From the NCBI RefSeq assembly GCF_030013205.1, contig NZ_CP122648.1: a stretch of 64,000 nt of DNA. One strand, given 5' to 3'. Shown piece after piece: positions 1,186 through 64,000 of this stretch (its first letter is position 1; each line of letters starts with the position of its first letter). Below the pieces are notes generated by a model, which was given only the letters and a program-made list of their open reading frames with translations, was not told the DNA's origin and did not search any database. The DNA comes from Escherichia coli. Its GTDB lineage: Bacteria > Pseudomonadota > Gammaproteobacteria > Enterobacterales > Enterobacteriaceae. A program made the translations under genes and the position numbers.

Positions 1186-2054
1186 GGTTCGTCGTCTTCT
1201 TCTTGTTCAGCAGCTTGTTTTAATTTGCGGTATTCCCCGAGAGTGACAGTAATTTCCGCGCCAAGCAAGACGATACACCATGTCCAGTAGACCCAAACAA
1301 AGAGAATGGGGATCACCGCCAGCACGCCGTAAATGAGCTGATATGACGGGAACATGGTGATATAAAGCGCGAAACCTTTCTTTCCTGCTTCGAACAGGAG
1401 TGCAGCGACAAACGCGCCGACAATCGCGTCGCGGTTAGGTACGCGGATGGTAGGAACAATGCTGTACAGCAACCAGAAGGAGATCCACGACAACAGCAGC
1501 GGAAAAATACGCAGCACGTTGTCGATGACAGTATTGAGATCGCTCGCCCAGCGCAGGGAGAGCAAATAGGAACTGATCGCCAGACTGGCCCCTGCCAGCA
1601 GCGGCCCCAGCGTTAAAATCATCCAGTACACGGCGAACGAGTAAATTTTTGGTCGAGCTCGTTTACTGCGCCAGATGGTATTCAACGCGCTATCGATGGA
1701 GTACATCAACAATAACGCGGTGACGATCAGCCCGCACGCCCCAACGGCGGTCATCTTGTTGGAATTGGCAACAAATTGTTCGATATACCGCTGAATAACA
1801 TCGCCAGTAGCAGGCAGAAAGTTGGCAAAAATAAAGTGACGCAACTGAATGCTGACGTCGGAAAACATGGGAAAAGCGGCGAAAAGCGCAAAAACAACGG
1901 CAACCAGCGGCACTAATGAGAGCAACGACACATAGGCAAGGTTACCTGCCAAGGTAGTCATGTTGTCCTCATCAATGCGTTGCCAGAGTAGTTTTAGCCA
2001 GGCCCATAGTGGACGGGTACGGTGCCTGGCTTTGTCCTGAATGGTTTTTAGCAT
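1182..2054 (-). CDS. yihY: YihY/BrkB-family inner membrane protein
   Basis: 290-aa hydrophobic ORF; conserved position between yihX and dtd. Confidence 0.9.
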
Positions 2055-2647
2055 AACACCTTCGCGAAATAGCCCGGGATGGTGGTTTTATCTTTCACCA
2101 GAATGCTGGTAATGCCTAGCTGATTAGCTCCTTCTATATTATCGGCGTTATCGTCGAAAAAGACCGTATCGCTGGGTGAAAAACCTTCCGCCTGCAAAAC
2201 ATGCTGGTAAATTCGTGCTTCAGGTTTGCGCATCCCCAGATCTTGCGACAGATAGATATGGTCAGCAGCATCACGAATTTCCGGGTATTCTTCCGGCCAG
2301 AAGGTGGTATGCAGGCGGTTGGTATTGGAAAGCACCACCACGCGATGCCCCTGCTCACGCAGTTTATGCATGATGGCGATCACTTCCGGGCGCAGCGCAA
2401 CAAACACCGCCTGCCAGCCGTGAGAGAACTGCTCATAGCTTAGCGGTAGAGCCATCTCATGACACAGCGCCTCTGCGAACGCTTCGTCGCTAATTTCCCC
2501 ACGCTCATGCTGATGAAACGCCTCGCCCATGTGGAAACTCTTCTTAAGCGTAGCCAGTGGAACACGCGTTAAATCGCTCCAGGCACCCAGCACACGGTTA
2601 AAGTCGATATCGACAATCACATTACCTAAATCAAAGATATAGAGCAT
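2048..2647 (-). CDS. yihX: HAD-family alpha-D-glucose-1-phosphate phosphatase
   Basis: ORF 2048..2668 trimmed to the internal Met giving [15 protein letters not shown] (HAD motif DxD near N-terminus); 199 aa. Confidence 0.9.
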
Positions 2648-2745
2648 TTTTGCCTCCTTTCGCGCCACAAGAAATTAACTGTAGCGGGAAAGGATAGGTT
2701 TGGCTATGTGGTCAGGTATGAAGCAAGGTCAACGGTCACAAAATT

Positions 2746-3531
2746 CTACGCGTCTTCCTGGGGAAGGATGATTTCAATTTGGCTGTCTTGTAAGCGTGAT
2801 TTTAGCGCAGCGGGCGGCAGCTCGTCGGTAAAGAGCGCAGTGACCTGTGCCACGTTACCAATTTCAACCGCCGCCGAAGCATGATACTTAGTGTGATCGG
2901 CGACCAGCAGAATATTTCTCGCGTGCGCCATCATCGTTTTCACCACGTTAGCTTCGTTAACATCAAACTCCATCAACGCGCCATCGCTCTCAATCGCCCC
3001 AACGCTTGTTACCAGATAATCAGCACGAAAATCAGCCACAAAGGACGCCGCTGAAGGGCCAATGATCCCGCTATTATGAGAGCGCAACGTACCGCCGGGC
3101 ACCATCACTTCAAAGCGCGGGTTGTGGTAAAGAATATGCGCCACACGCAGGCTGTTGGTGATTATCCGCAAATGATTGTGGTTAAGTAACGCCCGGGCAA
3201 CATGTTCAACAGTCGTACCGATGGTGATAAATATTGTCGATCCATCAGGAATATAGTCTGCCACCGCTTCGGCAATCGCTTTTTTCTCTTCAGTTTGCGA
3301 AACCTCACGCTGCTCAAACGCCGTATTAACGACGCTGGAGGCCCGACCCGCGCCACCGTGATGGCGCGTGATCAGCCCTTGCTCGCTTAATTTACGAATA
3401 TCCCGGCGGACCGTCTGCGTGGAGACATCCAGCAGATTTGCCAGCTCATCAATATTCATATACCCACGCTCGGCGATCAGCATGAGGAGTTGGTCGTGCC
3501 GCGGGTTACCGGTTAGTTCGGTAAGGCTCAT
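2746..3531 (-). CDS. yihW: DeoR-family transcriptional repressor of sulfoquinovose catabolism (CsqR)
   Basis: ORF 2746..3555 trimmed to MSLTELTGNPRHDQLLMLI...; N-terminal HTH plus DeoR C-terminal sugar-binding domain; 261 aa. Confidence 0.9.
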   Translation of the reverse strand: MSLTELTGNPRHDQLLMLIAERGYMNIDELANLLDVSTQTVRRDIRKLSEQGLITRHHGGAGRASSVVNTAFEQREVSQTEEKKAIAEAVADYIPDGSTIFITIGTTVEHVARALLNHNHLRIITNSLRVAHILYHNPRFEVMVPGGTLRSHNSGIIGPSAASFVADFRADYLVTSVGAIESDGALMEFDVNEANVVKTMMAHARNILLVADHTKYHASAAVEIGNVAQVTALFTDELPPAALKSRLQDSQIEIILPQEDA

Positions 3532-3564
3532 GAAAATTCCTCGAAAAACCATCACCCTGACATT

Positions 3565-4461
3565 TTATACAAAAAGTGACAAAAAAGATCGGGTTTGATC
3601 ACAGTCAGGGATCCCGGCTCGTCCACCGGGACGCGTGCATTTCAACGCCGCTACACCGCTGGCGAAGCGGACTGACTCCGCTAAATCCCCATCTGTTGCC
3701 AGCGCCACCGCCAATGCGCCGTGAAAAACATCACCCGCACCGGTGGTATCTACCACATCAACTTTGAAGGCCGGTTGATGTTGACGCCCGCCATTTTCCA
3801 GCCAGTCACAGCCTGCGCTGCCCTGGGTCACATAGACATGACCATTTGTGAGCGTTTGTGCCTGTTTTAGCGCACTGGCCATCTCTTTCACGCCCGTTAA
3901 GCGTGCCAGACCCGGTTCTGAAAAGGCCGCGTGATCGCTTAATGCCACCAGCTCGCTGATGTCCTGCGGCGTAATGTCCCCGTCCAGAACGGTCATCACG
4001 CCCGCCTGCCGGGCCAGAGTGAAGGCTTTTTTAGCACCGTCGTGCCAGCGTACATCTGCCAGCACAACATCCCACTGAGAGAAATCAATTTCCTCCAACC
4101 ACTCTGCGTCAGGCAGCAGGTCCGGGCTGGGGTAGTTAATGATTATCCGCTCGCCTTTGGCATCCACCATGATGGCGGATTGCGAAGATTTCGCCTGGTT
4201 ATACCGTTTGGTGTAACGGGTGTTAACGCCCCAGGATTCCAGCTCTGCCAGCAGGCTGTTGCCCGTGTCGTCATCACCTACGCGACCAATAAAATCAACC
4301 TGCGCCCCCAGCCTTGCCGCCGCAACCGCTGCCGTCGCCGCTGGCCCGCCACCAACTTCCGTATAATTTCTCGCCACGTATTTACCGCTCTCCGTCGGTA
4401 ATCCTTCCACGTAATAAATACGATCCATCACGGTAATACCTACACAAGCAACACGAATCAT
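3565..4461 (-). CDS. yihV: 6-deoxy-6-sulfofructose kinase (PfkB-family sugar kinase)
   Basis: ORF 3565..4467 trimmed to MIRVACVGITVMD; PfkB motifs (GGGPAATAAVAAARLG, DTTGAGD). Confidence 0.9.
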   Translation of the reverse strand: MIRVACVGITVMDRIYYVEGLPTESGKYVARNYTEVGGGPAATAAVAAARLGAQVDFIGRVGDDDTGNSLLAELESWGVNTRYTKRYNQAKSSQSAIMVDAKGERIIINYPSPDLLPDAEWLEEIDFSQWDVVLADVRWHDGAKKAFTLARQAGVMTVLDGDITPQDISELVALSDHAAFSEPGLARLTGVKEMASALKQAQTLTNGHVYVTQGSAGCDWLENGGRQHQPAFKVDVVDTTGAGDVFHGALAVALATDGDLAESVRFASGVAALKCTRPGGRAGIPDCDQTRSFLSLFV

Positions 4462-4628
4462 GGTCATTCCTTAAGCATTTTGGGATGCGTTCATTTTAAT
4501 TTCACCAATTGTTTAAAAAGTGACGGCTGTCAATTTTTTGACGATAACTTACAAATACGATCAAAAACAGACAAGCAAAGCATGTCATAAATGACAAAAA
4601 GTGACATTACTGTATTCAGGAGAGGGTT

Positions 4629-5525
4629 ATGGCAGCAATCGCGTTTATCGGTTTAGGACAAATGGGTTCGCCAATGGCGAGCAATTTATTGCAGCAAGGG
4701 CATCAACTTCGCGTCTTTGATGTGAACGCCGAAGCTGTGCGGCATCTGGTAGACAAAGGTGCGACTCCCGCCGCCAACCCGGCGCAGGCCGCTAAAGATG
4801 CCGAATTTATCATTACCATGTTGCCGAATGGCGATCTGGTGCGCAGCGTGTTGTTCGGTGAAAACGGCGTTTGCGAAAGCTTATCTACCGATGCGCTGGT
4901 CATCGATATGTCGACCATCCATCCGCTGCAAACCGATAAATTGATTGCCGATATGCAAGCCAAAGGCTTCAGCATGATGGATGTTCCGGTAGGCCGTACT
5001 TCTGCAAATGCCATTACCGGTACTCTGTTACTGCTGGCTGGCGGCACCGCTGAACAAGTTGAACGCGCCACACCGATCCTGATGGCGATGGGCAGTGAGT
5101 TGATCAACGCGGGCGGCCCGGGCATGGGGATCCGCGTTAAGCTCATCAACAACTACATGAGCATCGCGCTCAATGCGCTTTCGGCAGAAGCCGCCGTTTT
5201 GTGCGAAGCCCTGAATCTTCCCTTCGATGTTGCCGTCAAGGTGATGAGCGGCACCGCCGCCGGTAAAGGCCACTTCACCACTTCCTGGCCAAACAAAGTC
5301 CTCAGCGGGGATCTTTCTCCCGCCTTCATGATCGATCTTGCCCATAAGGATCTTGGTATCGCCCTTGATGTCGCCAACCAGCTGCATGTGCCAATGCCGC
5401 TGGGGGCCGCCTCACGGGAGGTTTATAGCCAGGCGCGCGCAGCGGGTCGCGGTCGCCAGGACTGGTCCGCCATTCTGGAACAGGTCCGTGTCAGTGCCGG
5501 GATGACTGCCAAAGTAAAAATGTAA
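4629..5525 (+). CDS. yihU: 3-sulfolactaldehyde reductase (beta-hydroxyacid dehydrogenase family)
   Basis: 298-aa ORF; N-terminal Rossmann motif [14 protein letters not shown]; RBS aggagagg upstream. Confidence 0.9.
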
Positions 5526-5548
5526 CGACTGGATAAAGGAATAAATGA

Positions 5549-6427
5549 ATGAATAAGTACACCATCAACGACATTACACGCGCATCGGGCGGTTTTGCCA
5601 TGCTGGCGGTCGATCAACGCGAAGCCATGCGCATGATGTTTGCCGCGGCTGGGGCACCCGCTCCAGTAGCCGATAGCGTTTTAACTGATTTCAAAGTTAA
5701 CGCTGCAAAGGCCCTCTCGCCTTATGCCTCGGCGATTCTGGTGGATCAGCAATTCTGTTACCGCCAGGTGGTTGAGCAAAACGCGATTGCCAAAAGTTGC
5801 GCCATGATTGTCGCCGCCGATGAGTTCATTCCTGGCAACGGTATTCCGGTAGATAGCGTGGTCATTGACCGCAGAATCAATCCGCTACAAATCAAACAAG
5901 ACGGTGGCAAAGCCTTAAAACTGCTGGTGCTGTGGCGTAGTGATGAAGATGCGCAGCAACGTCTGGATATGGTGAAAGAGTTTAACGAACTGTGCCACTC
6001 ACACGGCCTGGTAAGCATTATTGAGCCAGTCGTCCGCCCACCACGTCGTGGCGATAAATTCGATCGCGAACAAGCGATCATTGATGCCGCCAAAGAACTG
6101 GGCGACAGTGGCGCTGACCTCTACAAAGTTGAAATGCCGCTTTACGGTAAAGGTCCGCAACAAGAGCTTCTCAGTGCTTCACAACGTCTGAATGACCATA
6201 TCAATATGCCGTGGGTGATACTTTCTTCCGGTGTCGACGAAAAACTGTTCCCGCGTGCCGTACGCGTGGCAATGACAGCGGGTGCATCGGGCTTCCTGGC
6301 TGGTCGTGCCGTCTGGGCATCGGTTGTCGGTTTACCAGACAACGAGCTGATGCTGCGTGACGTTTGCGCACCGAAATTACAACAACTTGGCGATATCGTC
6401 GACGAAATGATGGCTAAACGCCGTTAA
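5549..6427 (+). CDS. yihT: 6-deoxy-6-sulfofructose-1-phosphate aldolase
   Basis: 292-aa ORF immediately downstream of yihU; class I aldolase-like; conserved synteny. Confidence 0.9.
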
Positions 6428-6442
6428 GATGGGGATACAAAA

Positions 6443-7684
6443 ATGAAATGGTTTAACACCTTAAGTCACAACCGTTGGCTGGAACAGGAAACCGACCGCA
6501 TCTTTGATTTTGGTAAAAATTCCGTAGTACCGACCGGATTTGGCTGGTTAGGCAATAAAGGGCAAATCAAAGAAGAGATGGGCACCCATCTGTGGATCAC
6601 CGCTCGTATGTTGCACGTTTATTCCGTTGCTGCGGCGATGGGTCGACCTGGCGCTTACTCGTTGGTTGATCACGGTATCAAAGCCATGAACGGCGCACTG
6701 CGCGATAAAAAATATGGCGGTTGGTATGCCTGCGTGAATGACGAGGGCGTGGTGGATGCCTCCAAACAGGGCTATCAACACTTCTTTGCTCTGCTGGGTG
6801 CTGCCAGCGCCGTCACTACCGGTCACCCGGAAGCCCGTAAACTTCTCGATTACGCCATTGAAATTATTGAGAAATACTTCTGGAGCGAAGAAGAGCAGAT
6901 GTGCCTGGAGTCCTGGGACGAAGCCTTCAGCAAAACCGAAGAGTACCGCGGCGGCAATGCCAACATGCACGCGGTGGAAGCCTTCCTGATTGTCTATGAC
7001 GTCACCCATGACAAAAAATGGCTGGATCGCGCGATTCGCGTGGCTTCCGTGATTATCCACGACGTCGCCAGAAATAATCATTATCGCGTTAACGAGCACT
7101 TCGATACCCAGTGGAATCCGCTGCCGGATTACAACAAAGATAACCCGGCGCACCGCTTCCGCGCATTCGGTGGCACGCCGGGCCACTGGATCGAATGGGG
7201 CCGTTTAATGCTGCACATCCACGCGGCCCTGGAAGCCCGTTGTGAACAGCCGCCTGCCTGGCTGCTAGAAGATGCCAAAGGTCTATTTAACGCCACCGTG
7301 CGCGATGCCTGGGCACCCGATGGCGCGGACGGGATTGTTTATACCGTTGACTGGGAAGGCAAACCGGTGGTTCGCGAACGTGTGCGTTGGCCTATCGTCG
7401 AAGCGATGGGTACGGCTTACGCGCTCTACACCGTCACCGGCGATCGCCAGTATGAAACCTGGTATCAGACATGGTGGGACTACTGCATTAAGTACCTGAT
7501 GGACTATGAAAATGGTTCCTGGTGGCAGGAGCTGGATGCGGACAATAAAGTCACCACGAAAGTCTGGGACGGCAAACAGGATATTTATCACCTGCTGCAT
7601 TGCCTGGTGATCCCGCGTATCCCGTTAGCGCCAGGCCTGGCTCCGGCGGTTGCAGCGGGCCTGCTGGACATTAACGCGAAATAA
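6443..7684 (+). CDS. yihS: Sulfoquinovose isomerase (AGE/N-acyl-glucosamine epimerase fold)
   Basis: 413-aa ORF; recognised as YihS; synteny. Confidence 0.9.
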
Positions 7685-7742
7685 CTGAGCTGAAATAACG
7701 GCATATCAGGCTACATGCCGGGTATGTCGTTATTCAATAAAG

Positions 7743-8654
7743 GTGCCTCGTATGCAAATCACCAACATGCATTGCAGTGGACAAACCGTTTCACTTGCCG
7801 CGGGGGATTATCACGCGACTATCGTGACGGTTGGTGCTGGTCTGGCTGAATTAACTTTTCAGGGTTGTCATTTAGTCATCCCACACAAACCCGAAGAGAT
7901 GCCGCTGGCGCATCTGGGTAAAGTGCTTATTCCGTGGCCGAACCGGATCGCCAACGGCTGTTATCGCTATCAGGGGCAGGACTATCAGTTACCCATTAAT
8001 GAACATAGTTCAAAAGCCGCTATTCACGGGCTGCTTGCCTGGCGTGACTGGCAAATTAGCGAATTAACCGCCACCAGCGTTACCCTGACAGCTTTTCTGC
8101 CGCCCAGTTACGGCTATCCGTTTATGCTGGCTTCACAAGTTGTTTATTCGCTCAATGCACGCACGGGTCTTTCCGTTGAGATCGCAAGCCAGAATATTGG
8201 TACTGTGACCGCACCTTATGGTGTGGGTATTCATCCTTATTTAACCTGCAACTTAACATCTGTTGATGACTATCTTTTCCAGCTTCCGGCAGAACAGGTT
8301 TATGCCGTCGATGAGCACGCAAATCCGACAACGCTTCACCACGTTGATGAGTTGGATTTAAATTTCACGCAGGCGAAAAAAATAGCCGCGACAAAAATCG
8401 ACCACACCTTTAAAACCGCTAATGATCTGTGGGAAATGACCATTACCCATCCACAGCATTTGCTTTCGGTGAGCCTCTGTTCCGATCAACCCTGGGTGCA
8501 GGTTTATAGCGGTGAAAAATTACAGCGTCAGGGACTGGCAGTTGAACCTATGAGTTGCCCGCCTGATGCGTTTAATTCCGGCACCGATTTAATATTACTG
8601 CAACCCGGAAAAACACACCGCCTGTTTTTTAATATTTACGGACAGAGAAAATAA
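7743..8654 (+). CDS. yihR: Aldose 1-epimerase family protein (sulfoquinovose mutarotase)
   Basis: 303-aa ORF from a GTG at 7743; an alternative ATG start at 7752 (MQITNMHCSG) has a better-spaced RBS. Start uncertain. Confidence 0.85.
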   Translation: MPRMQITNMHCSGQTVSLAAGDYHATIVTVGAGLAELTFQGCHLVIPHKPEEMPLAHLGKVLIPWPNRIANGCYRYQGQDYQLPINEHSSKAAIHGLLAWRDWQISELTATSVTLTAFLPPSYGYPFMLASQVVYSLNARTGLSVEIASQNIGTVTAPYGVGIHPYLTCNLTSVDDYLFQLPAEQVYAVDEHANPTTLHHVDELDLNFTQAKKIAATKIDHTFKTANDLWEMTITHPQHLLSVSLCSDQPWVQVYSGEKLQRQGLAVEPMSCPPDAFNSGTDLILLQPGKTHRLFFNIYGQRK

Positions 8655-8858
8655 CTTGTATTGATTAGCAGTCAAAATCATTGAAGAACATTTCACTCGC
8701 TAAAGGCAACGTTATGTATCATCAATTTATTAAGTTAAAAACAGCTCAGCTTCTTTAAAGTTTATATATATCAGTTTTATGAGAATCATTTTACATAAGC
8801 CTGTAATAACAATAACAGGAAGGAAACAACCTCGTTCTCAACTCTATGGAGATTATTT

Positions 8859-10895
8859 ATGGATACGCCACGCCCACAGTTATTAGATTTTCAATTTCAT
8901 CAGAATAACGACAGTCTTACCCTACGTTTTCAGGGCCGTCTTATTTTAACCCATAGTAAAGATAATCCTTGTTTATGGATTGGCTCAGGTATAGCGGATA
9001 TCGATATGTTCCGCGGTAATTTCAGCATTAAAGATAAATTGCAGGAGAAGATTGCGCTCACCGACGCTACCGTCAGCCAGTCACCGGATGGCTGGTTAAT
9101 CCATTTCAGCCGTGGTTCTGACATTAGCGCCACGCTGCGTATCTCTGCCGACGAACAGGGCCGTTTATTGCTGGAACTACAAAACGACAACCTTAACCAC
9201 AACCGTATCTGGCTGCGCCTTGCCGCTCAACCAGAGGACCATATCTACGGCTGCGGTGAACAATTCTCCTACTTTGATCTGCGCGGCAAACCGTTCCCGC
9301 TATGGACCAGTGAACAAGGCGTTGGTCGCAACAAGCAAACCTATGTCACCTGGCAGGCCGACTGCAAAGAGAACGCGGGCGGCGACTATTACTGGACTTT
9401 CTTCCCACAGCCTACGTTTGTCAGCACGCAGAAGTATTACTGCCATGTTGATAACAGTTGCTACATGAACTTCGACTTTAGCGCCCCGGAATACCATGAA
9501 CTGGCGCTGTGGGAAGACAAAGCAACGCTGCGTTTTGAATGTGCTGATACATACATCTCCCTGCTGGAAAAATTAACTGCCCTGCTGGGACGCCAGCCAG
9601 AACTGCCCGACTGGATTTATGACGGGGTAACGCTCGGCATTCAGGGCGGGACGGAAGTGTGTCAGAAGAAACTGGACACCATGCGTAACGCGGGTGTGAA
9701 GGTTAACGGCATCTGGGCGCAGGACTGGTCCGGGATCCGTATGACCTCTTTTGGCAAACGCGTAATGTGGAACTGGAAGTGGAACAGCGAAAACTATCCG
9801 CAACTGGACTCACGTATTAAGCAGTGGAACAAAGAGGGCGTGCAGTTCCTGGCCTATATCAACCCGTATGTAGCCAGCGATAAAGATCTCTGCGAAGAGG
9901 CGGCAAAGCGCGGTTATCTGGCAAAAGATGCCTCTGGCGGCGACTATCTGGTGGAGTTTGGCGAGTTCTATGGCGGCGTTGTCGATCTCACCAATCCAGA
10001 AGCCTACGCCTGGTTCAAGGAAGTGATCAAAAAGAACATGATTGAACTTGGCTGCGGCGGCTGGATGGCTGACTTCGGCGAGTATCTGCCCACCGACACG
10101 TACCTGCATAACGGCGTCAGCGCGGAAATTATGCATAACGCCTGGCCCGCGCTGTGGGCGAAATGTAACTACGAAGCCCTTGAAGAAACGGGCAAGCTCG
10201 GCGAGATCCTCTTCTTTATGCGCGCCGGTTCTACCGGTAGCCAGAAATACTCCACCATGATGTGGGCGGGCGACCAGAACGTCGACTGGAGTCTCGACGA
10301 TGGCCTGGCGTCGGTTGTCCCGGCGGCGCTGTCGCTGGCAATGACCGGACATGGCCTGCATCACAGCGACATTGGCGGTTACACCACCCTGTTTGAGATG
10401 AAGCGCAGCAAAGAGCTGCTGCTGCGCTGGTGCGATTTCAGCGCCTTCACGCCGATGATGCGCACCCACGAAGGTAACCGTCCTGGCGACAACTGGCAGT
10501 TTGACGGCGACGCGGAAACCATCGCCCATTTCGCCCGTATGACCACCGTCTTCACCACCCTGAAACCTTATCTGAAAGAGGCCGTCGCGCTGAATGCGAA
10601 GTCCGGTCTGCCGGTCATGCGCCCGCTGTTCCTGCATTACGAAGACGATGCGCACACTTACACCCTGAAATATCAGTACCTGTTAGGTCGCGACATTCTG
10701 GTCGCTCCGGTGCATGAAGAAGGCCGTAGCGACTGGACGCTCTATCTGCCGGAGGATAACTGGGTTCACGTCTGGACGGGTGAAGCGTTCCGGGGCGGGG
10801 AAGTTACCGTTAATGCGCCCATCGGCAAGCCGCCGGTCTTTTATCGCGCCGATAGCGAATGGGCGGCACTGTTCGCGTCGTTAAAAAGCATCTAA
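8859..10895 (+). CDS. yihQ: Sulfoquinovosidase (glycoside hydrolase family 31)
   Basis: 678-aa ORF; GH31-like; preceded by a 204-bp AT-rich intergenic region. Confidence 0.9.
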   Translation: MDTPRPQLLDFQFHQNNDSLTLRFQGRLILTHSKDNPCLWIGSGIADIDMFRGNFSIKDKLQEKIALTDATVSQSPDGWLIHFSRGSDISATLRISADEQGRLLLELQNDNLNHNRIWLRLAAQPEDHIYGCGEQFSYFDLRGKPFPLWTSEQGVGRNKQTYVTWQADCKENAGGDYYWTFFPQPTFVSTQKYYCHVDNSCYMNFDFSAPEYHELALWEDKATLRFECADTYISLLEKLTALLGRQPELPDWIYDGVTLGIQGGTEVCQKKLDTMRNAGVKVNGIWAQDWSGIRMTSFGKRVMWNWKWNSENYPQLDSRIKQWNKEGVQFLAYINPYVASDKDLCEEAAKRGYLAKDASGGDYLVEFGEFYGGVVDLTNPEAYAWFKEVIKKNMIELGCGGWMADFGEYLPTDTYLHNGVSAEIMHNAWPALWAKCNYEALEETGKLGEILFFMRAGSTGSQKYSTMMWAGDQNVDWSLDDGLASVVPAALSLAMTGHGLHHSDIGGYTTLFEMKRSKELLLRWCDFSAFTPMMRTHEGNRPGDNWQFDGDAETIAHFARMTTVFTTLKPYLKEAVALNAKSGLPVMRPLFLHYEDDAHTYTLKYQYLLGRDILVAPVHEEGRSDWTLYLPEDNWVHVWTGEAFRGGEVTVNAPIGKPPVFYRADSEWAALFASLKSI

Positions 10896-10940
10896 TCACA
10901 TCCGCCCGTGGGGAAACTCATGGGCAAAGGGAGAACATCG

Positions 10941-12326
10941 ATGAGTCACATCACAACGGAAGATCCAGCAACTTTACGCCTGCCCTTTAAAGAGAAACTC
11001 TCTTACGGTATCGGCGATCTGGCCTCTAACATCCTGCTGGATATTGGTACGCTTTATCTTTTGAAGTTTTATACCGACGTTCTGGGGCTACCTGGTACCT
11101 ATGGCGGCATTATCTTTTTGATCTCGAAATTCTTTACCGCCTTTACCGATATGGGAACCGGCATCATGTTGGATTCCCGACGCAAGATCGGTCCAAAAGG
11201 TAAGTTCCGTCCTTTTATTCTGTATGCGTCATTCCCGGTCACCTTACTGGCGATCGCCAACTTTGTCGGCACACCGTTTGATGTCACCGGTAAAACGGTG
11301 ATGGCCACTATTCTGTTTATGCTTTACGGACTGTTTTTCAGCATGATGAACTGCTCCTACGGCGCAATGGTCCCCGCTATCACCAAAAACCCCAACGAAC
11401 GCGCCTCACTGGCGGCATGGCGTCAGGGCGGCGCTACGCTGGGCCTGCTGCTGTGCACGGTGGGATTCGTGCCGGTTATGAATCTTATCGAGGGGAATCA
11501 GCAACTTGGCTATATCTTCGCCGCCACGCTGTTTTCACTGTTCGGCCTGCTGTTTATGTGGATCTGCTACTCGGGCGTGAAAGAGCGTTATGTCGAAACC
11601 CAACCTGCTAATCCGGCGCAAAAGCCTGGCCTGTTGCAATCTTTCCGCGCAATTGCCGGTAACCGCCCGCTGTTCATTCTGTGTATTGCTAACCTCTGCA
11701 CCTTAGGGGCGTTTAACGTCAAGCTCGCCATTCAGGTTTATTACACCCAGTACGTGCTTAACGATCCCATCCTGTTGTCATATATGGGATTTTTCAGCAT
11801 GGGCTGTATTTTCATCGGCGTGTTCCTGATGCCTGGCGCAGTCAGACGTTTTGGTAAGAAGAAGGTCTATATCGGCGGCCTGCTGATTTGGGTGCTTGGC
11901 GATCTGCTCAACTATTTCTTTGGCGGCGGTTCGGTCAGCTTCGTGACGTTCTCCTGCCTGGCATTCTTCGGCTCAGCGTTTGTTAACAGCCTGAACTGGG
12001 CGCTGGTTTCCGACACCGTGGAATATGGCGAATGGCGCACCGGCGTGCGTTCGGAAGGGACGGTCTACACCGGTTTCACCTTCTTTCGCAAAGTTTCTCA
12101 GGCGCTGGCTGGTTTCTTCCCCGGCTGGATGCTGACGCAAATCGGCTATGTGCCGAACGTCGCACAGGCTGACCACACCATTGAAGGGTTGCGCCAGCTG
12201 ATCTTCATCTACCCAAGCGCACTGGCAGTAGTCACCATTGTGGCGATGGGTTGCTTCTACAGTCTGAACGAGAAGATGTACGTCCGCATTGTTGAAGAGA
12301 TAGAAGCCCGTAAACGCACGGCGTAA
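10941..12326 (+). CDS. yihP: GPH-family sugar:cation symporter-like transporter (sulfoglycolysis-associated)
   Basis: ORF 10908..12326 trimmed to MSHITTEDPATLRL (RBS agggag 8 nt upstream); 461 aa; paralogous to yihO. Confidence 0.9.
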   Translation: MSHITTEDPATLRLPFKEKLSYGIGDLASNILLDIGTLYLLKFYTDVLGLPGTYGGIIFLISKFFTAFTDMGTGIMLDSRRKIGPKGKFRPFILYASFPVTLLAIANFVGTPFDVTGKTVMATILFMLYGLFFSMMNCSYGAMVPAITKNPNERASLAAWRQGGATLGLLLCTVGFVPVMNLIEGNQQLGYIFAATLFSLFGLLFMWICYSGVKERYVETQPANPAQKPGLLQSFRAIAGNRPLFILCIANLCTLGAFNVKLAIQVYYTQYVLNDPILLSYMGFFSMGCIFIGVFLMPGAVRRFGKKKVYIGGLLIWVLGDLLNYFFGGGSVSFVTFSCLAFFGSAFVNSLNWALVSDTVEYGEWRTGVRSEGTVYTGFTFFRKVSQALAGFFPGWMLTQIGYVPNVAQADHTIEGLRQLIFIYPSALAVVTIVAMGCFYSLNEKMYVRIVEEIEARKRTA

Positions 12327-12368
12327 TTATAATAAACAACGCCCTGCGGGGCGTTATAAGGAGTGATT

Positions 12369-13772
12369 ATGTCTGACCATAATCCACTGACATTAAGACT
12401 GAATCTGCGGGAAAAAATCACCTATGGTATGGGCGACGTCGGTTCGAATTTAATGCTCTGCATCGGTACTCTGTATCTCCTCAAATTTTATACCGATGAA
12501 TTAGGGATGCCTGCTTACTATGGCGGGATTATCTTTCTGGTGGCGAAGTTTTTTACCGCGTTTACCGATATGCTCACCGGATTTTTACTCGACTCGCGGA
12601 AAAATATTGGGCCTAAAGGCAAATTTCGTCCCTTTATTTTATATGCAGCGGTTCCGGCGGCGTTAATTGCAACGCTCCAGTTTATCGCCACCACCTTTAG
12701 TTTGCCGGTTAAAACGACGATTGCCACCGCACTGTTTATGATGTTTGGACTTTCATACAGTCTGATGAACTGCTCGTATGGTGCGATGATCCCGGCAATT
12801 ACCAAAAACCCGAATGAGCGCGCGCAGCTCGCGGCTTACCGCCAGGGTGGTGCAACCATAGGGCTATTGATTTGTACCGTGGCGTTTATTCCGTTGCAGT
12901 CGCTTTTTTCTGACTCCACCGTCGGTTATGCCTGCGCGGCACTGATGTTCTCCATTGGTGGCTTTATTTTTATGATGCTGTGCTACAGAGGCGTCAAAGA
13001 GCATTATGTGGACACGACGCCAACCGGACATAAAGCCAGTATTCTCAAATCTTTTTGCGCGATATTTCGTAATCCGCCATTGCTGGTTTTGTGCATTGCT
13101 AACCTGTGTACCCTGGCGGCATTTAATATCAAACTGGCGATTCAGGTCTATTACACCCAGTATGTGCTGAATGATATTAATTTATTGTCGTGGATGGGAT
13201 TTTTCAGTATGGGATGTATCCTCGTCGGCGTATTACTGGTGCCATTAACTGTAAAATGTTTTGGTAAAAAACAGGTTTATTTAGCTGGCATGGTGCTATG
13301 GGCGGTTGGTGATATCCTGAATTATTTCTGGGGAAGTAACTCTTTCACTTTCGTCATGTTCTCTTGTGTCGCCTTTTTTGGCACGGCCTTTGTAAACAGC
13401 CTGAACTGGGCACTGGTGCCAGATACCGTAGATTACGGTGAATGGAAAACCGGTATTCGTGCCGAAGGTTCTGTTTATACCGGTTATACCTTCTTTCGTA
13501 AAATTTCTGCCGCACTTGCTGGCTTCTTGCCAGGCATTATGCTGACGCAAATCGGTTATGTTCCCAACATCGCGCAAAGTGATGCGACATTACAGGGTTT
13601 GCGTCAGCTCATTTTTATCTGGCCTTGTGCACTGGCAATTATTGCTGCATTGACGATGGGATTCTTTTACACACTCAATGAAAAACGGTTTGCATTGATT
13701 ATTGAGGAAATCAACCAACGCAAAAATAAAGAGATGGCGACAGAAGAAAAAACGGCTTCCGTAACGTTATAA
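12369..13772 (+). CDS. yihO: GPH-family transporter (sulfoquinovose importer)
   Basis: ORF 12363..13772 trimmed to MSDHNPLTLRL (RBS aaggag upstream); 467 aa. Confidence 0.9.
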   Translation: MSDHNPLTLRLNLREKITYGMGDVGSNLMLCIGTLYLLKFYTDELGMPAYYGGIIFLVAKFFTAFTDMLTGFLLDSRKNIGPKGKFRPFILYAAVPAALIATLQFIATTFSLPVKTTIATALFMMFGLSYSLMNCSYGAMIPAITKNPNERAQLAAYRQGGATIGLLICTVAFIPLQSLFSDSTVGYACAALMFSIGGFIFMMLCYRGVKEHYVDTTPTGHKASILKSFCAIFRNPPLLVLCIANLCTLAAFNIKLAIQVYYTQYVLNDINLLSWMGFFSMGCILVGVLLVPLTVKCFGKKQVYLAGMVLWAVGDILNYFWGSNSFTFVMFSCVAFFGTAFVNSLNWALVPDTVDYGEWKTGIRAEGSVYTGYTFFRKISAALAGFLPGIMLTQIGYVPNIAQSDATLQGLRQLIFIWPCALAIIAALTMGFFYTLNEKRFALIIEEINQRKNKEMATEEKTASVTL

Positions 13773-13839
13773 ATGTCAATAGCCGCTATTTCCATCCTGG
13801 TGGGTGGCGGCCTCCCTACGTTTAAAAAATGGACTTATT

Positions 13840-14532
13840 ATGAAAAAGATTCATGCAATAATTTTATTATCTTCTCTGACCTCTGCCTCGGTATTTGCTG
13901 GCGCATACGTCGAAAACAGGGAGGCATATAATCTCGCCTCCGATCAGGGCGAGGTTATGCTACGTGTGGGTTATAACTTCGATATGGGCGCGGGTATTAT
14001 GTTAACCAATACCTATAACTATCAGCGAGAAGATGAACTAAAACATGGATATAACGAAATCGAAGGTTGGTATCCTTTATTTAAACCAACCGATAAATTA
14101 ACCATCCAGCCCGGTGGCTTAATTAATGATAAGAGTATCGGTTCGGGTGGTGCTGTTTATCTGGATGTTAACTACAAATTTACTCCGTGGTTTAACCTGA
14201 CAGTGCGTAATCGCTATAACCATAATAATTACAGTTCTACAGATTTGAGCGGGGAACTGGATAATAATGACACCTATGAAGTTGGCACCTACTGGAATTT
14301 TAAAATCACCGAGAAATTCTCCTATACATTTGAACCACATTACTTCATGCGAGTAAATGACTTTAATAGCAGCAATGGAAAAGATCATCACTGGGAAATC
14401 ACTAACACCTTCCGTTATCGCATTAATGAACACTGGCTGCCTTATTTCGAATTACGCTGGTTAGATCGTAATGTCGAACCGTACCACCGCGAGCAAAACC
14501 AGATTCGTATCGGGACGAAGTATTTCTTCTGA
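13840..14532 (+). CDS. ompL: Outer membrane porin L
   Basis: ORF 13804..14532 trimmed to MKKIHAIILLSSLTSASVFA (signal peptide); 230 aa; aromatic C-terminus ...KYFF typical of beta-barrel OMPs. Confidence 0.9.
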   Translation: MKKIHAIILLSSLTSASVFAGAYVENREAYNLASDQGEVMLRVGYNFDMGAGIMLTNTYNYQREDELKHGYNEIEGWYPLFKPTDKLTIQPGGLINDKSIGSGGAVYLDVNYKFTPWFNLTVRNRYNHNNYSSTDLSGELDNNDTYEVGTYWNFKITEKFSYTFEPHYFMRVNDFNSSNGKDHHWEITNTFRYRINEHWLPYFELRWLDRNVEPYHREQNQIRIGTKYFF

Positions 14533-14540
14533 TGTGAAAC

Positions 14541-14620
<80 letters not shown>

Positions 14621-14624
14621 TAAT

Positions 14625-15305
14625 TGTGCACAGAAAACCCCCAGCTAGGCTGGGGGTTCCGGAAAGCTTTCAGCTTTGAGCCAGTTATTAAAACCCCTTT
14701 TGATTTGTTAAAACACCTTGCGGTCTGGCAACTGCAAGTGTCAAACAAGAAATCAAAAGGGGGTCCCAATGGGGAACGAAAAGAGCTTAGCGCACACCCG
14801 ATGGAACTGTAAATATCACATGGTTTTTGCGCCAAAATACCGAAGACAGGTGTTCTACAGAGAGAAGCGTAGAGCAATAGGCAGTATTTTGAGAAAGCTG
14901 TGTGAGTGGAAAAGCGTACGGATTCTGGAAGCTGAATGCTGTGCAGATCATATCCATATGCTTGTGGAGATCCCGCCTAAAATGAGCGTATCCGGGTTTA
15001 TGGGATATCTGAAAGGGAAAAGCAGTCTGATGCTTTACGAGCAGTTTGGTGATTTGAAATTCAAATACAGGAACAGGGAGTTCTGGTGCAGAGGGTACTA
15101 CGTCGATACAGTGGGTAAGAACACGGCGAAGATACAGGATTACATAAAGCACCAGCTTGAAGAGGATAAAATGGGAGAGCAGTTATCGATTCCCTATCCG
15201 GGCAGCCCGTTTACGGGCCGTAAGTAACGAAGTTGGATGCAAATGTCAGATCGTGTGCGCCTGTTAGGGCGCGGCTGGTAAGAGAGCCTTATAGGCGCAT
15301 TTGAA
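14625..15305 (+). mobile_element. IS200-family (IS200/IS605) insertion element; ends approximate
   Basis: Contains a 152-aa tnpA ORF nearly identical to Salmonella IS200 TnpA as remembered; perfect hairpin cccccag-ctagg-ctggggg at about 14640-14658 upstream of tnpA; K-12 has no such element between ompL and yihN. Exact left and right ends not determinable without an empty-site comparison. Confidence 0.7.
14769..15227 (+). CDS. tnpA: IS200 transposase TnpA (HUH Y1 transposase)
   Basis: MGNEKSLAHTRWNCKYHMVFAPKYRRQVFY...HIHMLVEIPPK...; HUH motif (HIH) and the catalytic-Tyr region recognised; RBS aaagggg upstream. Confidence 0.9.
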   Translation: MGNEKSLAHTRWNCKYHMVFAPKYRRQVFYREKRRAIGSILRKLCEWKSVRILEAECCADHIHMLVEIPPKMSVSGFMGYLKGKSSLMLYEQFGDLKFKYRNREFWCRGYYVDTVGKNTAKIQDYIKHQLEEDKMGEQLSIPYPGSPFTGRK

Positions 15306-15307
15306 AA

Positions 15308-15334
15308 ACCTCCGGCTATGCCGGAGGATATTTA
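15308..15334 (-). terminator. Putative intrinsic terminator of yihN (could alternatively be the IS200 right-end hairpin)
   Basis: Minus-strand hairpin cctccggcatagccggagg followed by ttttt, directly 3' of the yihN stop. Confidence 0.45.
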
Positions 15335-16600
15335 TTAAGCTTCAGCCGCCAGCATCTCTTTCTTACGTTGGCTAATACGCTTAACCAGCATTACGGAAAC
15401 CACCGCACCACAGAATGCGAAGCAGGCCATAATGCCAAACACGATTTTGTAGCCAATAATCCCCGGATTTAAATCCAGAATGTAGCCATACAGACTGAAG
15501 CAGAACATCGCCGGGGCGTAACCAATAAAGCTACCCAACGCCATCGCCGCGCCTGTTTTATTTTCAGCAATTTTTGCTTCGCCGATAGGTGCAAAAAATA
15601 CGGCTCGCTGTGTAAAGACTATCGCGCCAAAGCCCAGCGTACATGCCATCCCTAAATATACCGGCATACTTTCGTGCGGCAGCATAATCAACAGTACGAG
15701 CGCAGCGGTACTGATGATAAAGGTGTAGCATAGATATTTACTCGGCGATTTCAGGATCTTATCTGAAATCATGCCACCAATCGGTCCACCAATCATTTTC
15801 AGACAGTATTGGTTAATGATGCCGTAAGCCCCCACCAGCGCAACGGGCAATAGATAGATGTTTTTCAGGAATGGAATGAAGAATGTCAGGCCACAGTAAA
15901 CCGCGTAAACGAAGAAGACGTTGAAAGCGATAAGCCAGATAGTTTTGTCTTTCAGCACCGAGGTCATACTGGTGTTTTTCGATGCTCCGTCTTCTTTTTT
16001 CACCTCAACGGACGGTGCCTCTTCTTTGTCATTCAGAACAAAGAAAATGATAATGCCTACGGCAATCACAATAAGGGAATAGAACCAGATGCCTGCTTTA
16101 AAACCCAATAAGCCACTGCCAAACCAGGTAAATACTGCCAACGCAGAAAATGCCACCACGGTATCGACAATGCCACGCCCTGTTTCGAAGAAGCCAAACA
16201 ACCGACCTTGTTGTTCGCTATTGCCCAATCGACTTACCGACTTGAGCAAGACCGGCCAGTTCATCATGTCGCAAGTAACGCCAAATAGCGCCCAGACAAA
16301 GAGGATGCCCCAATACCCCGGCATTGTCGTCAAATAAACACCCAGTAATCCTGTCGCAATGAGTGAGAATGACATGGTGTATCTGCGCGGTAGTTTATCG
16401 GCAAAATAAATAGACAGAAAAAAGCCCACTGTCGTGACAAATGAGTTTACCGACATAGCATTACCAATTTGACCATTGGTCAAATGGAAATATTCCTGCA
16501 TCGGGATATAAAACGCATCTTTCAGCGACGGTAATTTATAAATTGTACCGCCACACAATGTTAATAGACTAAATAACGCCCATTTCTTTTTCGTGAGCAT
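15335..16600 (-). CDS. yihN: MFS transporter
   Basis: 421-aa ORF, polytopic hydrophobic; synteny with yihM/yihL. Confidence 0.9.
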   Translation of the reverse strand: MLTKKKWALFSLLTLCGGTIYKLPSLKDAFYIPMQEYFHLTNGQIGNAMSVNSFVTTVGFFLSIYFADKLPRRYTMSFSLIATGLLGVYLTTMPGYWGILFVWALFGVTCDMMNWPVLLKSVSRLGNSEQQGRLFGFFETGRGIVDTVVAFSALAVFTWFGSGLLGFKAGIWFYSLIVIAVGIIIFFVLNDKEEAPSVEVKKEDGASKNTSMTSVLKDKTIWLIAFNVFFVYAVYCGLTFFIPFLKNIYLLPVALVGAYGIINQYCLKMIGGPIGGMISDKILKSPSKYLCYTFIISTAALVLLIMLPHESMPVYLGMACTLGFGAIVFTQRAVFFAPIGEAKIAENKTGAAMALGSFIGYAPAMFCFSLYGYILDLNPGIIGYKIVFGIMACFAFCGAVVSVMLVKRISQRKKEMLAAEA

Positions 16601-16701
16601 AACATCCCCTAAGCGATTTTTAAAATCACTGTTTTAAAGGCAATAAGATACCGACCATTCATATCGAATGGTTTTATTAACTGCGTATGAGTTAAAACTT
16701 A

Positions 16702-17682
16702 TTAGTGGTTCAGAAGATGGTTTGCCTCTTGTTTGATTTGTTGTAGTACGTTACGCACATGATTTATCTGATTAATTGCATCTTCTTTTTCTTTACGTAA
16801 CCGCGCATCCAGTAAATGATTTTCTGGCAATGGTGTTTCACTCATCTGGCGATAAGGGATCCACGGATTATCATCTTCGTCTTCAAAGCGGAACGCCGGC
16901 GCATAGTAATCAACCTCTTCTTCCAGGCCATATGCCGTCACCTGCGGCTCATCATCACCCAGGCATATAAGGTGCGTTAATAACGCTTTGAACGGCATAT
17001 CACCCTGACCTGAAATACAGGCTTTATGACCCAGGCCACCCTCTTCTTTAACGATCAAGGCATCTTTGATATGGACCTGGGTAATATGCGGTGCCATCGT
17101 TTTTAAAGCGTCGATGGGATGCTCATTTGCATTGATCATGTTCGCAAAATCAAACAGTAAGGAAAGAGATTCCATCTCACTTTCTTTGACCAGCGACACC
17201 AGCTCATGGCTTTTTAAATCTTCATGCTGTTCGATCGTAAAAGTCAGGCCGCTGTCCTGATACGTTTCCCGTACATAGGCAATGTCGTTAGCGATGATCG
17301 ATAATACGTCGCGCAAATTACCTTCATAACGTGGATAAAAACGTACGGACGATGCCCCAGTTTTCAACGCAATGGCGACGGCTTCGTCAATAGATGCCTT
17401 ATCTGAAGCGCTGGTTTCAATATGAATATCAAGGTTCAGACGGCGGGCTTTATCCCCAAAGGCAGAGAGTTCTTTATCGTCCATATTACCAAGAGAAAAA
17501 CGCTCGCCATCCAGAACATGGATTTTGACGCCACGTAGATTATTTTCACTTGCGATATCAAGTAAATCAGCAGGCAACACTCTTTCCAGCCGCATATTTA
17601 AATGAAAGGCATAAGCATGTAAATAAAGAGGAAGAGTGTCGACACGTTGTAGAATCTTTCTTGCGTTATTTATTGTCACCAT
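16702..17682 (-). CDS. yihM: Sugar phosphate isomerase/epimerase (xylose-isomerase-like TIM barrel)
   Basis: 326-aa ORF; recognised as YihM. Confidence 0.88.
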   Translation of the reverse strand: MVTINNARKILQRVDTLPLYLHAYAFHLNMRLERVLPADLLDIASENNLRGVKIHVLDGERFSLGNMDDKELSAFGDKARRLNLDIHIETSASDKASIDEAVAIALKTGASSVRFYPRYEGNLRDVLSIIANDIAYVRETYQDSGLTFTIEQHEDLKSHELVSLVKESEMESLSLLFDFANMINANEHPIDALKTMAPHITQVHIKDALIVKEEGGLGHKACISGQGDMPFKALLTHLICLGDDEPQVTAYGLEEEVDYYAPAFRFEDEDDNPWIPYRQMSETPLPENHLLDARLRKEKEDAINQINHVRNVLQQIKQEANHLLNH

Positions 17683-63371: not shown

Positions 63372-64000
63372 ATGAGTGATATTATTTACCTGAACATAAC
63401 CGGAGAACAACAAGGATGTATTTCCTCTCGTTGTGGAACGAGCGCATCAATAGGTAATCGCTGGCAGATTGGCCATGAAGATGAAATCTTCGCGTTCTCG
63501 CTCTCTAATAGTATTACGAATACAGGCAAAGGGTCACAATTGCATGGCCTTAGTTTCTGTAAATTGATTGACAAAAGCTCCCCGTTACTTATTAACGCTA
63601 TTAACAATAACGAGCAGTTGTTCATGGAGTTTGACTTCTATCGGATCAATAGATTTGGTCGATGGGAGAAATATTACAACATTCAACTTCGCGGCGCGCT
63701 CTTATCAGCAATCAATCACCTGTTTACTGAGAACAATCTGGATACAGAAACCATCACTGTCAGTTATGAATATATACTCTCCAGGCATCTGATTGCTAAT
63801 ACTGAATTTAGTTATTTGGCATTTCCCGATAACTACAACCGTCTGTTTATACCACGGCCAAAAACTAAAGATGATAATGGCCTCAAAACACTCAATAGTA
63901 AAGCGGTTGGCAGACTGCTTGCTGCTGGCGGCATATACAATGGGAATATCGAAGGATTCAGGGAAACAGCAAACAAGTTGGGAGGAGATGCACCTGCTGG
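63372..64000 (+). CDS. Hcp-like (type VI secretion tube protein family) ORF with C-terminal extension; 3' end beyond the window
   Basis: ATG at 63372, open to the window end (at least 209 codons, checked codon by codon). N-terminus MSDIIYLNITGEQQGCISSRCGTSASIGNRWQIGHEDE... and internal LSFCKLIDKSSPLLINAINNNEQLFMEFDFYRINRFGRWEKYY match Hcp hallmarks (GHEDE, KxIDKSSPxL, FxFYRIN). An Hcp domain is normally complete by about 150-160 aa; this ORF continues (…IPRPKTKDDNGLKTLNSKAVGRLLAAGGIYNGNIEGFRETANKLGGDAPA…). Low-GC relative to flanking core genes. Not in the ORF track because no stop lies in the window. Confidence 0.7.
   Translation, partial: MSDIIYLNITGEQQGCISSRCGTSASIGNRWQIGHEDEIFAFSLSNSITNTGKGSQLHGLSFCKLIDKSSPLLINAINNNEQLFMEFDFYRINRFGRWEKYYNIQLRGALLSAINHLFTENNLDTETITVSYEYILSRHLIANTEFSYLAFPDNYNRLFIPRPKTKDDNGLKTLNSKAVGRLLAAGGIYNGNIEGFRETANKLGGDAPA

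Follow-up and report, generated by a model that had tools for sequence, protein, structure and literature searches.

A long, K-12-type sulfoglycolysis gene cluster in a swine-associated Escherichia coli and its place among variants of the yih locus

The stretch of DNA analyzed here (the window) comprises 64,000 nucleotides of Escherichia coli contig NZ_CP122648.1 (assembly GCF_030013205.1) and carries the genes csqR (yihW) to ompL, which are assigned to the use of sulfoquinovose (SQ). SQ is the sugar head group of plant sulfolipids, and the SQ pathway supplies 2,3-dihydroxypropanesulfonate (DHPS) to sulfite- and sulfide-producing gut bacteria. Gene content, gene order and protein sequence leave us with high confidence that these genes represent the E. 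coli sulfoglycolytic Embden-Meyerhof-Parnas (sulfo-EMP) cluster in its long, K-12-type form, in which the minus strand encodes csqR-yihV and the plus strand yihU-T-S-R-Q-P-O-ompL. A swine-associated E. coli lineage would in that case keep a standard, apparently functional pathway for this plant sulfolipid sugar. The cluster is already known biology, as a first-pass annotation of the window had also stated, being the published K-12 sulfo-EMP cluster; the present analysis corrects its gene count and coordinates and places it, as the long, K-12-type form, among the structural variants of the locus.

Gene content and comparison with the K-12 cluster

The cluster of K-12 MG1655 (ompL-yihOPQRSTUV-csqR, b3875-b3884; Denger et al. 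2014) shares with the window all ten genes, their order and orientation and their position between yihX and yihN, and the conserved order assigned in the first-pass annotation was thereby borne out. That annotation had also placed all ten genes within 2746-13772, but this interval holds nine, the roles it listed likewise number nine, and the tenth gene, ompL, lies intact at 13840-14532. The published ten-gene cluster is made up of ompL and yihO-W (PMC8006165). The open reading frames (ORFs) themselves were found where they had been placed, at 2746-3555 and 3565-4467 on the minus strand, followed by 4629-5525, 5549-6427, 6443-7684, 7743-8654, 8859-10895, 10908-12326 and 12363-13772. For several genes the starts in the ORF list are longer than those in the RefSeq record of strain K_EC180, which served as the source of annotation (window position equals record position minus 4,815,424). 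The RefSeq starts of csqR (3531), yihV (4461), yihR (7752), yihP (10941), yihO (12369) and ompL (13840) are all ATG codons, and a purine-rich, Shine-Dalgarno-like stretch precedes most of them, that of ompL being weak. None of the genes contains an internal stop, in agreement with the earlier description of the genes as intact, and all lengths equal those in K-12 except that of yihR (300 versus 308 annotated amino acids).

Positions 2000-15000 were 100% identical over their full length to chromosomes of swine E. coli, including K_EC180, a series of enterotoxigenic E. coli (ETEC) isolates and O139:H1, while from 14076 to the window end three mismatches and a single 1-bp indel were counted against K_EC180. 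Relative to K-12 (NC_000913.3, 4060000-4082000), against which all cluster proteins were compared, the region was collinear in three blastn blocks of 96.3-99.0% DNA identity and was interrupted at only two places, by a replacement in the yihS-yihR spacer and by a 704-bp insertion between ompL and yihN. Neither strain carries a TauE gene, their CsqR proteins are identical and the functional residues checked are the same, whereas yihR is annotated 8 codons longer in K-12 and the insertion, an IS200C element, is present between ompL and yihN in the window only.

The protein-level comparison with K-12, which had been named as a check on the assignment, gave identities of 95.3-100% across all ten proteins, a level at which chance resemblance to the named K-12 genes can be set aside, with per-gene DNA identities of 94.4-98.7%. 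The protein families were those expected for the regulator, kinase, reductase, aldolase, isomerase, mutarotase and sulfoquinovosidase roles assigned before, the mutarotase role being assigned by inference. CsqR (261/261 residues identical) contains the Pfam HTH_DeoR and DeoRC domains, YihV (296/298; T101A, S257D) a PfkB domain, YihT (290/292) a DeoC/LacD domain and YihS (410/413) the GlcNAc_2-epim fold. YihU (296/298) scored 603 bits against the NCBIfam equivalog NF012005 (cut-off 348), and OmpL (225/230), a member of Pfam KdgM, scored 467 bits against the equivalog NF007434. YihQ (668/678) matched the E. coli YihQ structures 5AED, 5AEE and 5AEG end to end (E = 0). YihR was the most diverged protein of the cluster, with 286 of 300 residues identical over the shared part, and matched the equivalog NF011719 over positions 1-300 of 300 with 612 bits in addition to Pfam Aldose_epim. 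The membership of YihP (458/461) and YihO (463/467) in the GPH family held, both being above the TIGR00792 gph cut-off of 231 (536 and 528 bits, respectively); which of them imports and which exports is a proposed assignment. Equivalog-level matches above cut-off were thus obtained for YihU, YihR, YihQ and OmpL, and subfamily-level matches for the two GPH transporters, which are tandem paralogues of 63% protein identity.

Crystal structures have revealed dedicated sulfonate pockets in YihQ, YihS, YihV, YihT and YihU (PMC8006165), and 28 of the 31 residues checked here are named in that study (Sharma et al. 2021). All 31 catalytic or sulfonate-pocket residues were conserved, with no substitution relative to K-12 at any of these positions. 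They include H248, H383, R55, Q362, Q379, F239, W316, W51, R238 and W375 of YihS, the K27-N109-R138 sulfonate triad, the base D244 and D13, S95 and D162 of YihV, the Schiff-base lysine K193 with R253, S226, S227 and A26 of YihT, the sulfonate pocket R301, W304 and Y508 of YihQ, and R123, N174 and S178 of YihU. Also present were D405 and D472 of YihQ, which we take to be the catalytic aspartates described by Speciale et al. 2016, and K171 of YihU, presumably a functional position as well. YihR contains the aldose 1-epimerase motifs IHG, IHPY and VEP (His92/His161/Glu265). No solved structure related to YihR, from Salmonella or elsewhere, was found at E <= 1e-10.

Table 1. Positions of the cluster genes, their spacers and the adjoining insertion sequence in the window
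Feature	Position	Strand	Description
csqR (yihW)	2746..3531	-	DeoR-family repressor, 261 aa; ORF extends to GTG at 3555
yihV	3565..4461	-	sulfofructose kinase, PfkB family, 298 aa
yihV/yihU control region	4462..4628		divergent; main CsqR target in K-12
yihU	4629..5525	+	NADH-dependent sulfolactaldehyde 3-reductase, 298 aa
yihT	5549..6427	+	class I sulfofructose-1-phosphate aldolase, 292 aa
yihS	6443..7684	+	sulfoquinovose-sulfofructose isomerase, 413 aa
yihS-yihR spacer	7685..7751		strain-variable; 22-nt hairpin 7699-7720
yihR	7752..8654	+	aldose 1-epimerase, putative sulfoquinovose mutarotase, 300 aa
yihR-yihQ spacer	8655..8858		204 bp, non-coding, K-12-type allele without TauE/SafE gene
yihQ	8859..10895	+	GH31 sulfoquinovosidase, 678 aa
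yihP	10941..12326	+	GPH-family transporter, proposed DHPS exporter, 461 aa
yihO	12369..13772	+	GPH-family transporter, proposed SQ / SQ-glycerol importer, 467 aa
ompL	13840..14532	+	KdgM-family outer-membrane porin, 230 aa; outside the interval first annotated
IS200C	14626..15329	+	tnpA 14769-15227; adjoins the cluster, not a pathway member

Regulation, proposed pathway and alternative roles

In K-12, the yihV/yihU spacer is a binding target of CsqR, and SQ, SQ-glycerol and sulforhamnose each release the repressor from it (PMC8249747, PMC8006165). The corresponding 167-bp spacer of the window was identical to that of K-12 at 164 positions. Because CsqR is identical and the spacer differs at three positions only, K-12-like regulation can reasonably be assumed, and CsqR would be expected, by analogy, to bind the yihV/yihU spacer in this strain. 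Met25, which corresponds to a reported alternative start of CsqR (PMC10991401), is present in the protein encoded here.

The mechanism established in K-12 can be applied to the window by orthology. SQ or sulfoquinovosyl glycerol would cross the outer membrane through OmpL and the inner membrane through the GPH symporter YihO (both proposed), and YihQ would hydrolyze the glycoside to alpha-SQ, the anomers of which would be interconverted faster by YihR, a step likewise inferred. YihS is then predicted to isomerize SQ to sulfofructose and, as a side product, sulforhamnose, YihV to phosphorylate sulfofructose at the expense of ATP, and YihT to cleave sulfofructose-1-phosphate into dihydroxyacetone phosphate, which would enter glycolysis, and sulfolactaldehyde. 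The latter would be reduced by YihU to DHPS, which would leave the cell via the proposed exporter YihP. SQ, SQ-glycerol or sulforhamnose would lift the repression that CsqR exerts on the cluster from the yihV/yihU spacer. The analogy with K-12 makes it reasonable to expect that the strain can probably grow on SQ, and expression of the genes and excretion of DHPS would be expected on the same grounds.

The sequence itself holds nothing that speaks against this assignment; several other points weigh against it or narrow what it predicts. A consensus promoter scan returned 10 sites as compared to 14.8 +/- 3.8 in shuffled sequence and hence no enrichment; since it did no better than the shuffles, the promoters are placed by identity with K-12 only. 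Terminator-like sites were mildly enriched (22 versus 14.7 +/- 3.5), and neither scan defined transcription units. The mutarotase role of YihR is a proposal even for K-12, SQ mutarotase activity having been characterised only for a Herbaspirillum enzyme that is 19% identical to E. coli YihR, and the transport roles of YihO, YihP and OmpL are putative, being proposals even in the K-12 annotation. At the level of phenotype, strain Nissle 1917, with yihTUVW as its only yih genes, is reported to match K-12 approximately in growth on SQ, with no induction of those genes (Kaznadzey et al. 2025). Presence of the cluster is therefore no clean predictor of phenotype, and the long yih cluster may not be the sole route to growth on SQ.

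The growth of Nissle 1917 with its short cassette, together with the description of SQ growth as low in both strains (Kaznadzey et al. 2025), leaves some room for a cluster that is intact here without determining growth on SQ, either because it is cryptic in this lineage or because it is redundant with another route. We regard this as quite unlikely, given that the long cassette of K-12 is induced by SQ with a Log2 fold change of at least 5 (Kaznadzey et al. 2025) and that the enzymes are highly selective for sulfosugars (PMC8006165). CsqR and its operator are, moreover, essentially as in K-12, and IS200C lies outside every gene, downstream of ompL.

A main physiological role other than SQ catabolism appears less probable still. 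Such a role would lie in a lactose-related pathway or in the O-antigen capsule, the latter role having been reported for Salmonella yihU-yshA and yihVW (Gibson et al. 2006). A 2018 comparative genomics study ties the cassette to lactose degradation (PMC5816610), and csqR expression responds to several sugars (PMC10991401), but the sulfonate-pocket residues of five enzymes are all conserved in the window and the effectors demonstrated for CsqR are SQ and its derivatives (PMC8249747, PMC8006165).

Structural variants of the locus and the TauE/SafE gene

Two states of the locus have been described, a long cassette consisting of ompL-yihOPQRSTUVW and a short cassette consisting of yihTUVW (Kaznadzey et al. 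2025), and the window carries the long one. Among 5,426 complete E. coli genomes surveyed here, 3,878 (71.5%) had the long form, defined as 80% or more of yihS-ompL in a single piece, while 1,400 (~26%) gave no match to yihS-ompL, which agrees with the published short form. The remaining 148 genomes gave partial matches, as exemplified by an IS1-associated truncation in XJ5.2. In that strain (locus L004, 12748-14327) IS1 follows directly after yihP, in the place from which yihO, ompL, yihN and a portion of yihM are absent. Only 33 genomes reached 99% identity to the window or more across yihS-ompL; most genomes were at ~96%. The short cassette, found in Nissle 1917 and many B2 or ExPEC (extraintestinal pathogenic) strains, occupies the same locus and encodes homologues of the aldolase, reductase, kinase and regulator; unlike the cluster of the window it is without ompL and yihS, R, Q, P and O, has an inverted orientation and shows no induction by SQ, and CsqR shares only 72% identity with its YihW (Kaznadzey et al. 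2025). The window does not belong to this type, since it has all six of these genes, in the K-12 orientation relative to the flanking genes.

Many long-form genomes contained approximately 840 extra bases. Closer examination of O157:H7, AR_0015 and XJ5.2 revealed an 876-nt gene between yihR and yihQ, annotated as 'sulfite exporter TauE/SafE family protein', which encodes an intact protein of 291 aa (Pfam PF01925, E = 8e-35). It is located at 6772-7647 of locus L003 (O157:H7), 7273-8148 of L086 and 8274-9149 of L004, and the corresponding site in the window, at 8655-8858, is without it, as in K-12. The TauE segment was present in 1,288-1,297 of the genomes (~24%) and the spacer of the window and K-12 type in 2,515-2,633, the two together accounting for the long-form genomes. 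In this eleven-gene variant (O157:H7 RM8376, AR_0015 and XJ5.2) the other ten genes have the same order and position as in the window, and much of yihS, yihR, yihQ and yihO agrees between AR_0015 and the window at 99-100% identity. The description of the cluster as complete in the first-pass annotation consequently stands relative to K-12, but about a quarter of E. coli genomes have an eleventh gene at this site.

The TauE segment of O157:H7 comprises 1,018 bp, compared to an AT-rich spacer of 178 bp plus the last three yihR codons in the window, and the two alleles had no detectable similarity from these three codons to ~18 bp upstream of yihQ. The yihR-yihQ spacer of the window was identical to that of K-12 at 191 of 204 positions and is AT-rich (30% G+C over 8663-8840). 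A blastn search with word size 7 detected no tauE remnant in this spacer, nor any homology to it in 80 other-species loci that had been retrieved with YihQ.

Within these loci, Citrobacter, Klebsiella spallanzanii, Pectobacterium, Enterobacter, Kluyvera, Pantoea, Serratia and Hafnia share with the window the core csqR-yihV / yihU-T-S-(R)-Q-P-O-(ompL), with 70-95% protein identity for most genes. TauE homologues of 75-86% identity were encoded inside or beside the sulfo-EMP clusters of Superficieibacter, Kluyvera, Citrobacter freundii, Pantoea and Enterobacter, at three different positions, namely in the yihR-yihQ interval, in the yihQ-yihP interval and upstream of csqR (L013, L015, L016, L018, L029 and L031). 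This recurrence at different sites suggests that TauE is an accessory component of the cluster, and a mobile one. No tauE was present within 7 kb in the loci of Citrobacter youngae and Klebsiella spallanzanii, whose YihQ is the most similar.

TauE-type permeases of other sulfoglycolysis clusters have been proposed to export organosulfonates or sulfite. We tentatively raise the possibility, considering it less probable than its opposite, that the locus is a three-state polymorphism (short, long, and long with TauE) in which TauE may be a real pathway component that exports DHPS or sulfite. If so, K-12-type clusters such as that of the window would be a reduced version, and the exporter role proposed for YihP would need re-examination. 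Kaznadzey et al. 2025 describe only the short and long states and not the TauE form, and the term 'TauE' is absent from the text of that survey of yih cassette variants and from the other E. coli-focused papers searched for it. The TauE-containing variant, found outside the window, is a lead for sulfoglycolysis specialists, as it offers a candidate organosulfonate or sulfite exporter.

For the window itself the corresponding alternative is that its cluster is incomplete, having been reduced from an eleven-gene cluster with a TauE/SafE (TSUP-family) permease, the loss of which would alter the exit of DHPS or sulfite. The intact gene of O157:H7 and of some 1,290 complete genomes, the recurrence of homologues in or beside other Enterobacterales sulfo-EMP clusters and the exporter roles proposed elsewhere are in favor of it. 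We nevertheless judge it unlikely: K-12, in which the pathway and its induction by SQ were established, has no tauE, so the gene is not required; the 178-bp spacer shows no remnant of it that would demonstrate a deletion, and insertion into other lineages is equally possible; and the Citrobacter youngae and Klebsiella spallanzanii loci are likewise without it within 7 kb.

YihR was an outlier among the products of the other-species loci as well. Where present, it was 54-71% identical (L005-L031), compared to 80-95% for the products of the flanking genes, and in the case of the Citrobacter, Klebsiella, Kluyvera and Pantoea homologues 54-61%, with flanking proteins at 80-93%. The yihR gene was absent from the Pectobacterium, Leclercia, Enterobacter and Rahnella loci, and the yihS-yihQ interval looks like a hot spot of gene replacement. 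In the Serratia, Hafnia and Chimaeribacter loci (L020-L023 and L030) csqR, yihV, U, Q, P and O were present, while no match to yihT or yihS was obtained at the thresholds used; these loci may employ a different isomerase and aldolase, the latter possibly of the class II type.

Spacers, mosaicism and the region around IS200C

The yihS-yihR spacer is ~74 bases longer in K-12 than in the window, where 26 bp (7696-7721) stand in place of ~100 bp that contain a GC-rich repeat element in K-12. Owing to a 4-bp indel, the annotated start codon of K-12 yihR, an ATG, is out of frame in the window, while the ATG at 7752, codon 9 in K-12 numbering, is conserved and preceded by a Shine-Dalgarno-like AAGGTG. 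Because the annotated K-12 codon is out of frame here and the one at 7752 is conserved, the latter is probably the real yihR start in both the window and K-12.

A 500-bp sliding comparison with K-12, O157:H7, AR_0015 and AHB30 revealed a fine mosaic, in which identity to each reference swings from ~89% to 100% along 2000-16700. The most variable stretch was the interior of ompL (14000-14500, 88.6-96.8% identity), and 8500-9000 stood out as well. This block-by-block pattern points to frequent recombination and agrees with the published view of the yih locus as recombination-prone (Kaznadzey et al. 2025). Apart from the yihO/yihP paralogy, a repeat search gave nothing but short matches of a kind that often arises by chance.

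The 704-bp IS200C element has its insertion site directly behind the stop codon of yihN and downstream of a repetitive extragenic palindromic (REP) element 3' of ompL, so that it lies between the convergent genes ompL and yihN without affecting any reading frame. Disruption or fusion of a gene by IS200C was excluded on the basis of this site. Its tnpA is positioned according to RefSeq, an Rfam STnc490 match lies at 14636-14759 (146 bits), and K-12 is without this insertion sequence. The junction was present in only 17 of the 5,426 genomes, all apparently of the swine ETEC or O139 lineage. A hairpin at the right end of the element, with a T-run behind it on the minus strand, now stands directly after yihN. 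REP-type palindromes occur downstream of ompL at 14536-14620, together with one sub-threshold Rfam naRNA4 match (40.6 bits, gathering score 59.5), and REP elements probably explain the median of 22-29 matching places per genome obtained with REP-containing queries. An Rfam scan of 2000-16800 (E <= 0.1) found no RNA family inside the cluster, the only hits being STnc490 in IS200C and the sub-threshold naRNA4.

Antisense ORFs in yihQ (281 aa) and yihS (212 aa) contain stops in O157:H7, and that in yihQ also in AHB30; they were rejected as genes, and because they are broken in other strains there are no competing hidden overlapping genes at these sites. An antisense ORF of 149 aa in yihU was free of stops in the four strains compared and was dismissed only for being unannotated and antisense to a conserved gene. 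At the far end of the window, a gene cut by the window boundary (~63372-64000) corresponds to a 1,134-nt gene for a 'type VI secretion system tube protein TssD' in the near-identical RefSeq record; this is much longer than a gene for plain Hcp, and the product may be an Hcp with a C-terminal extension.

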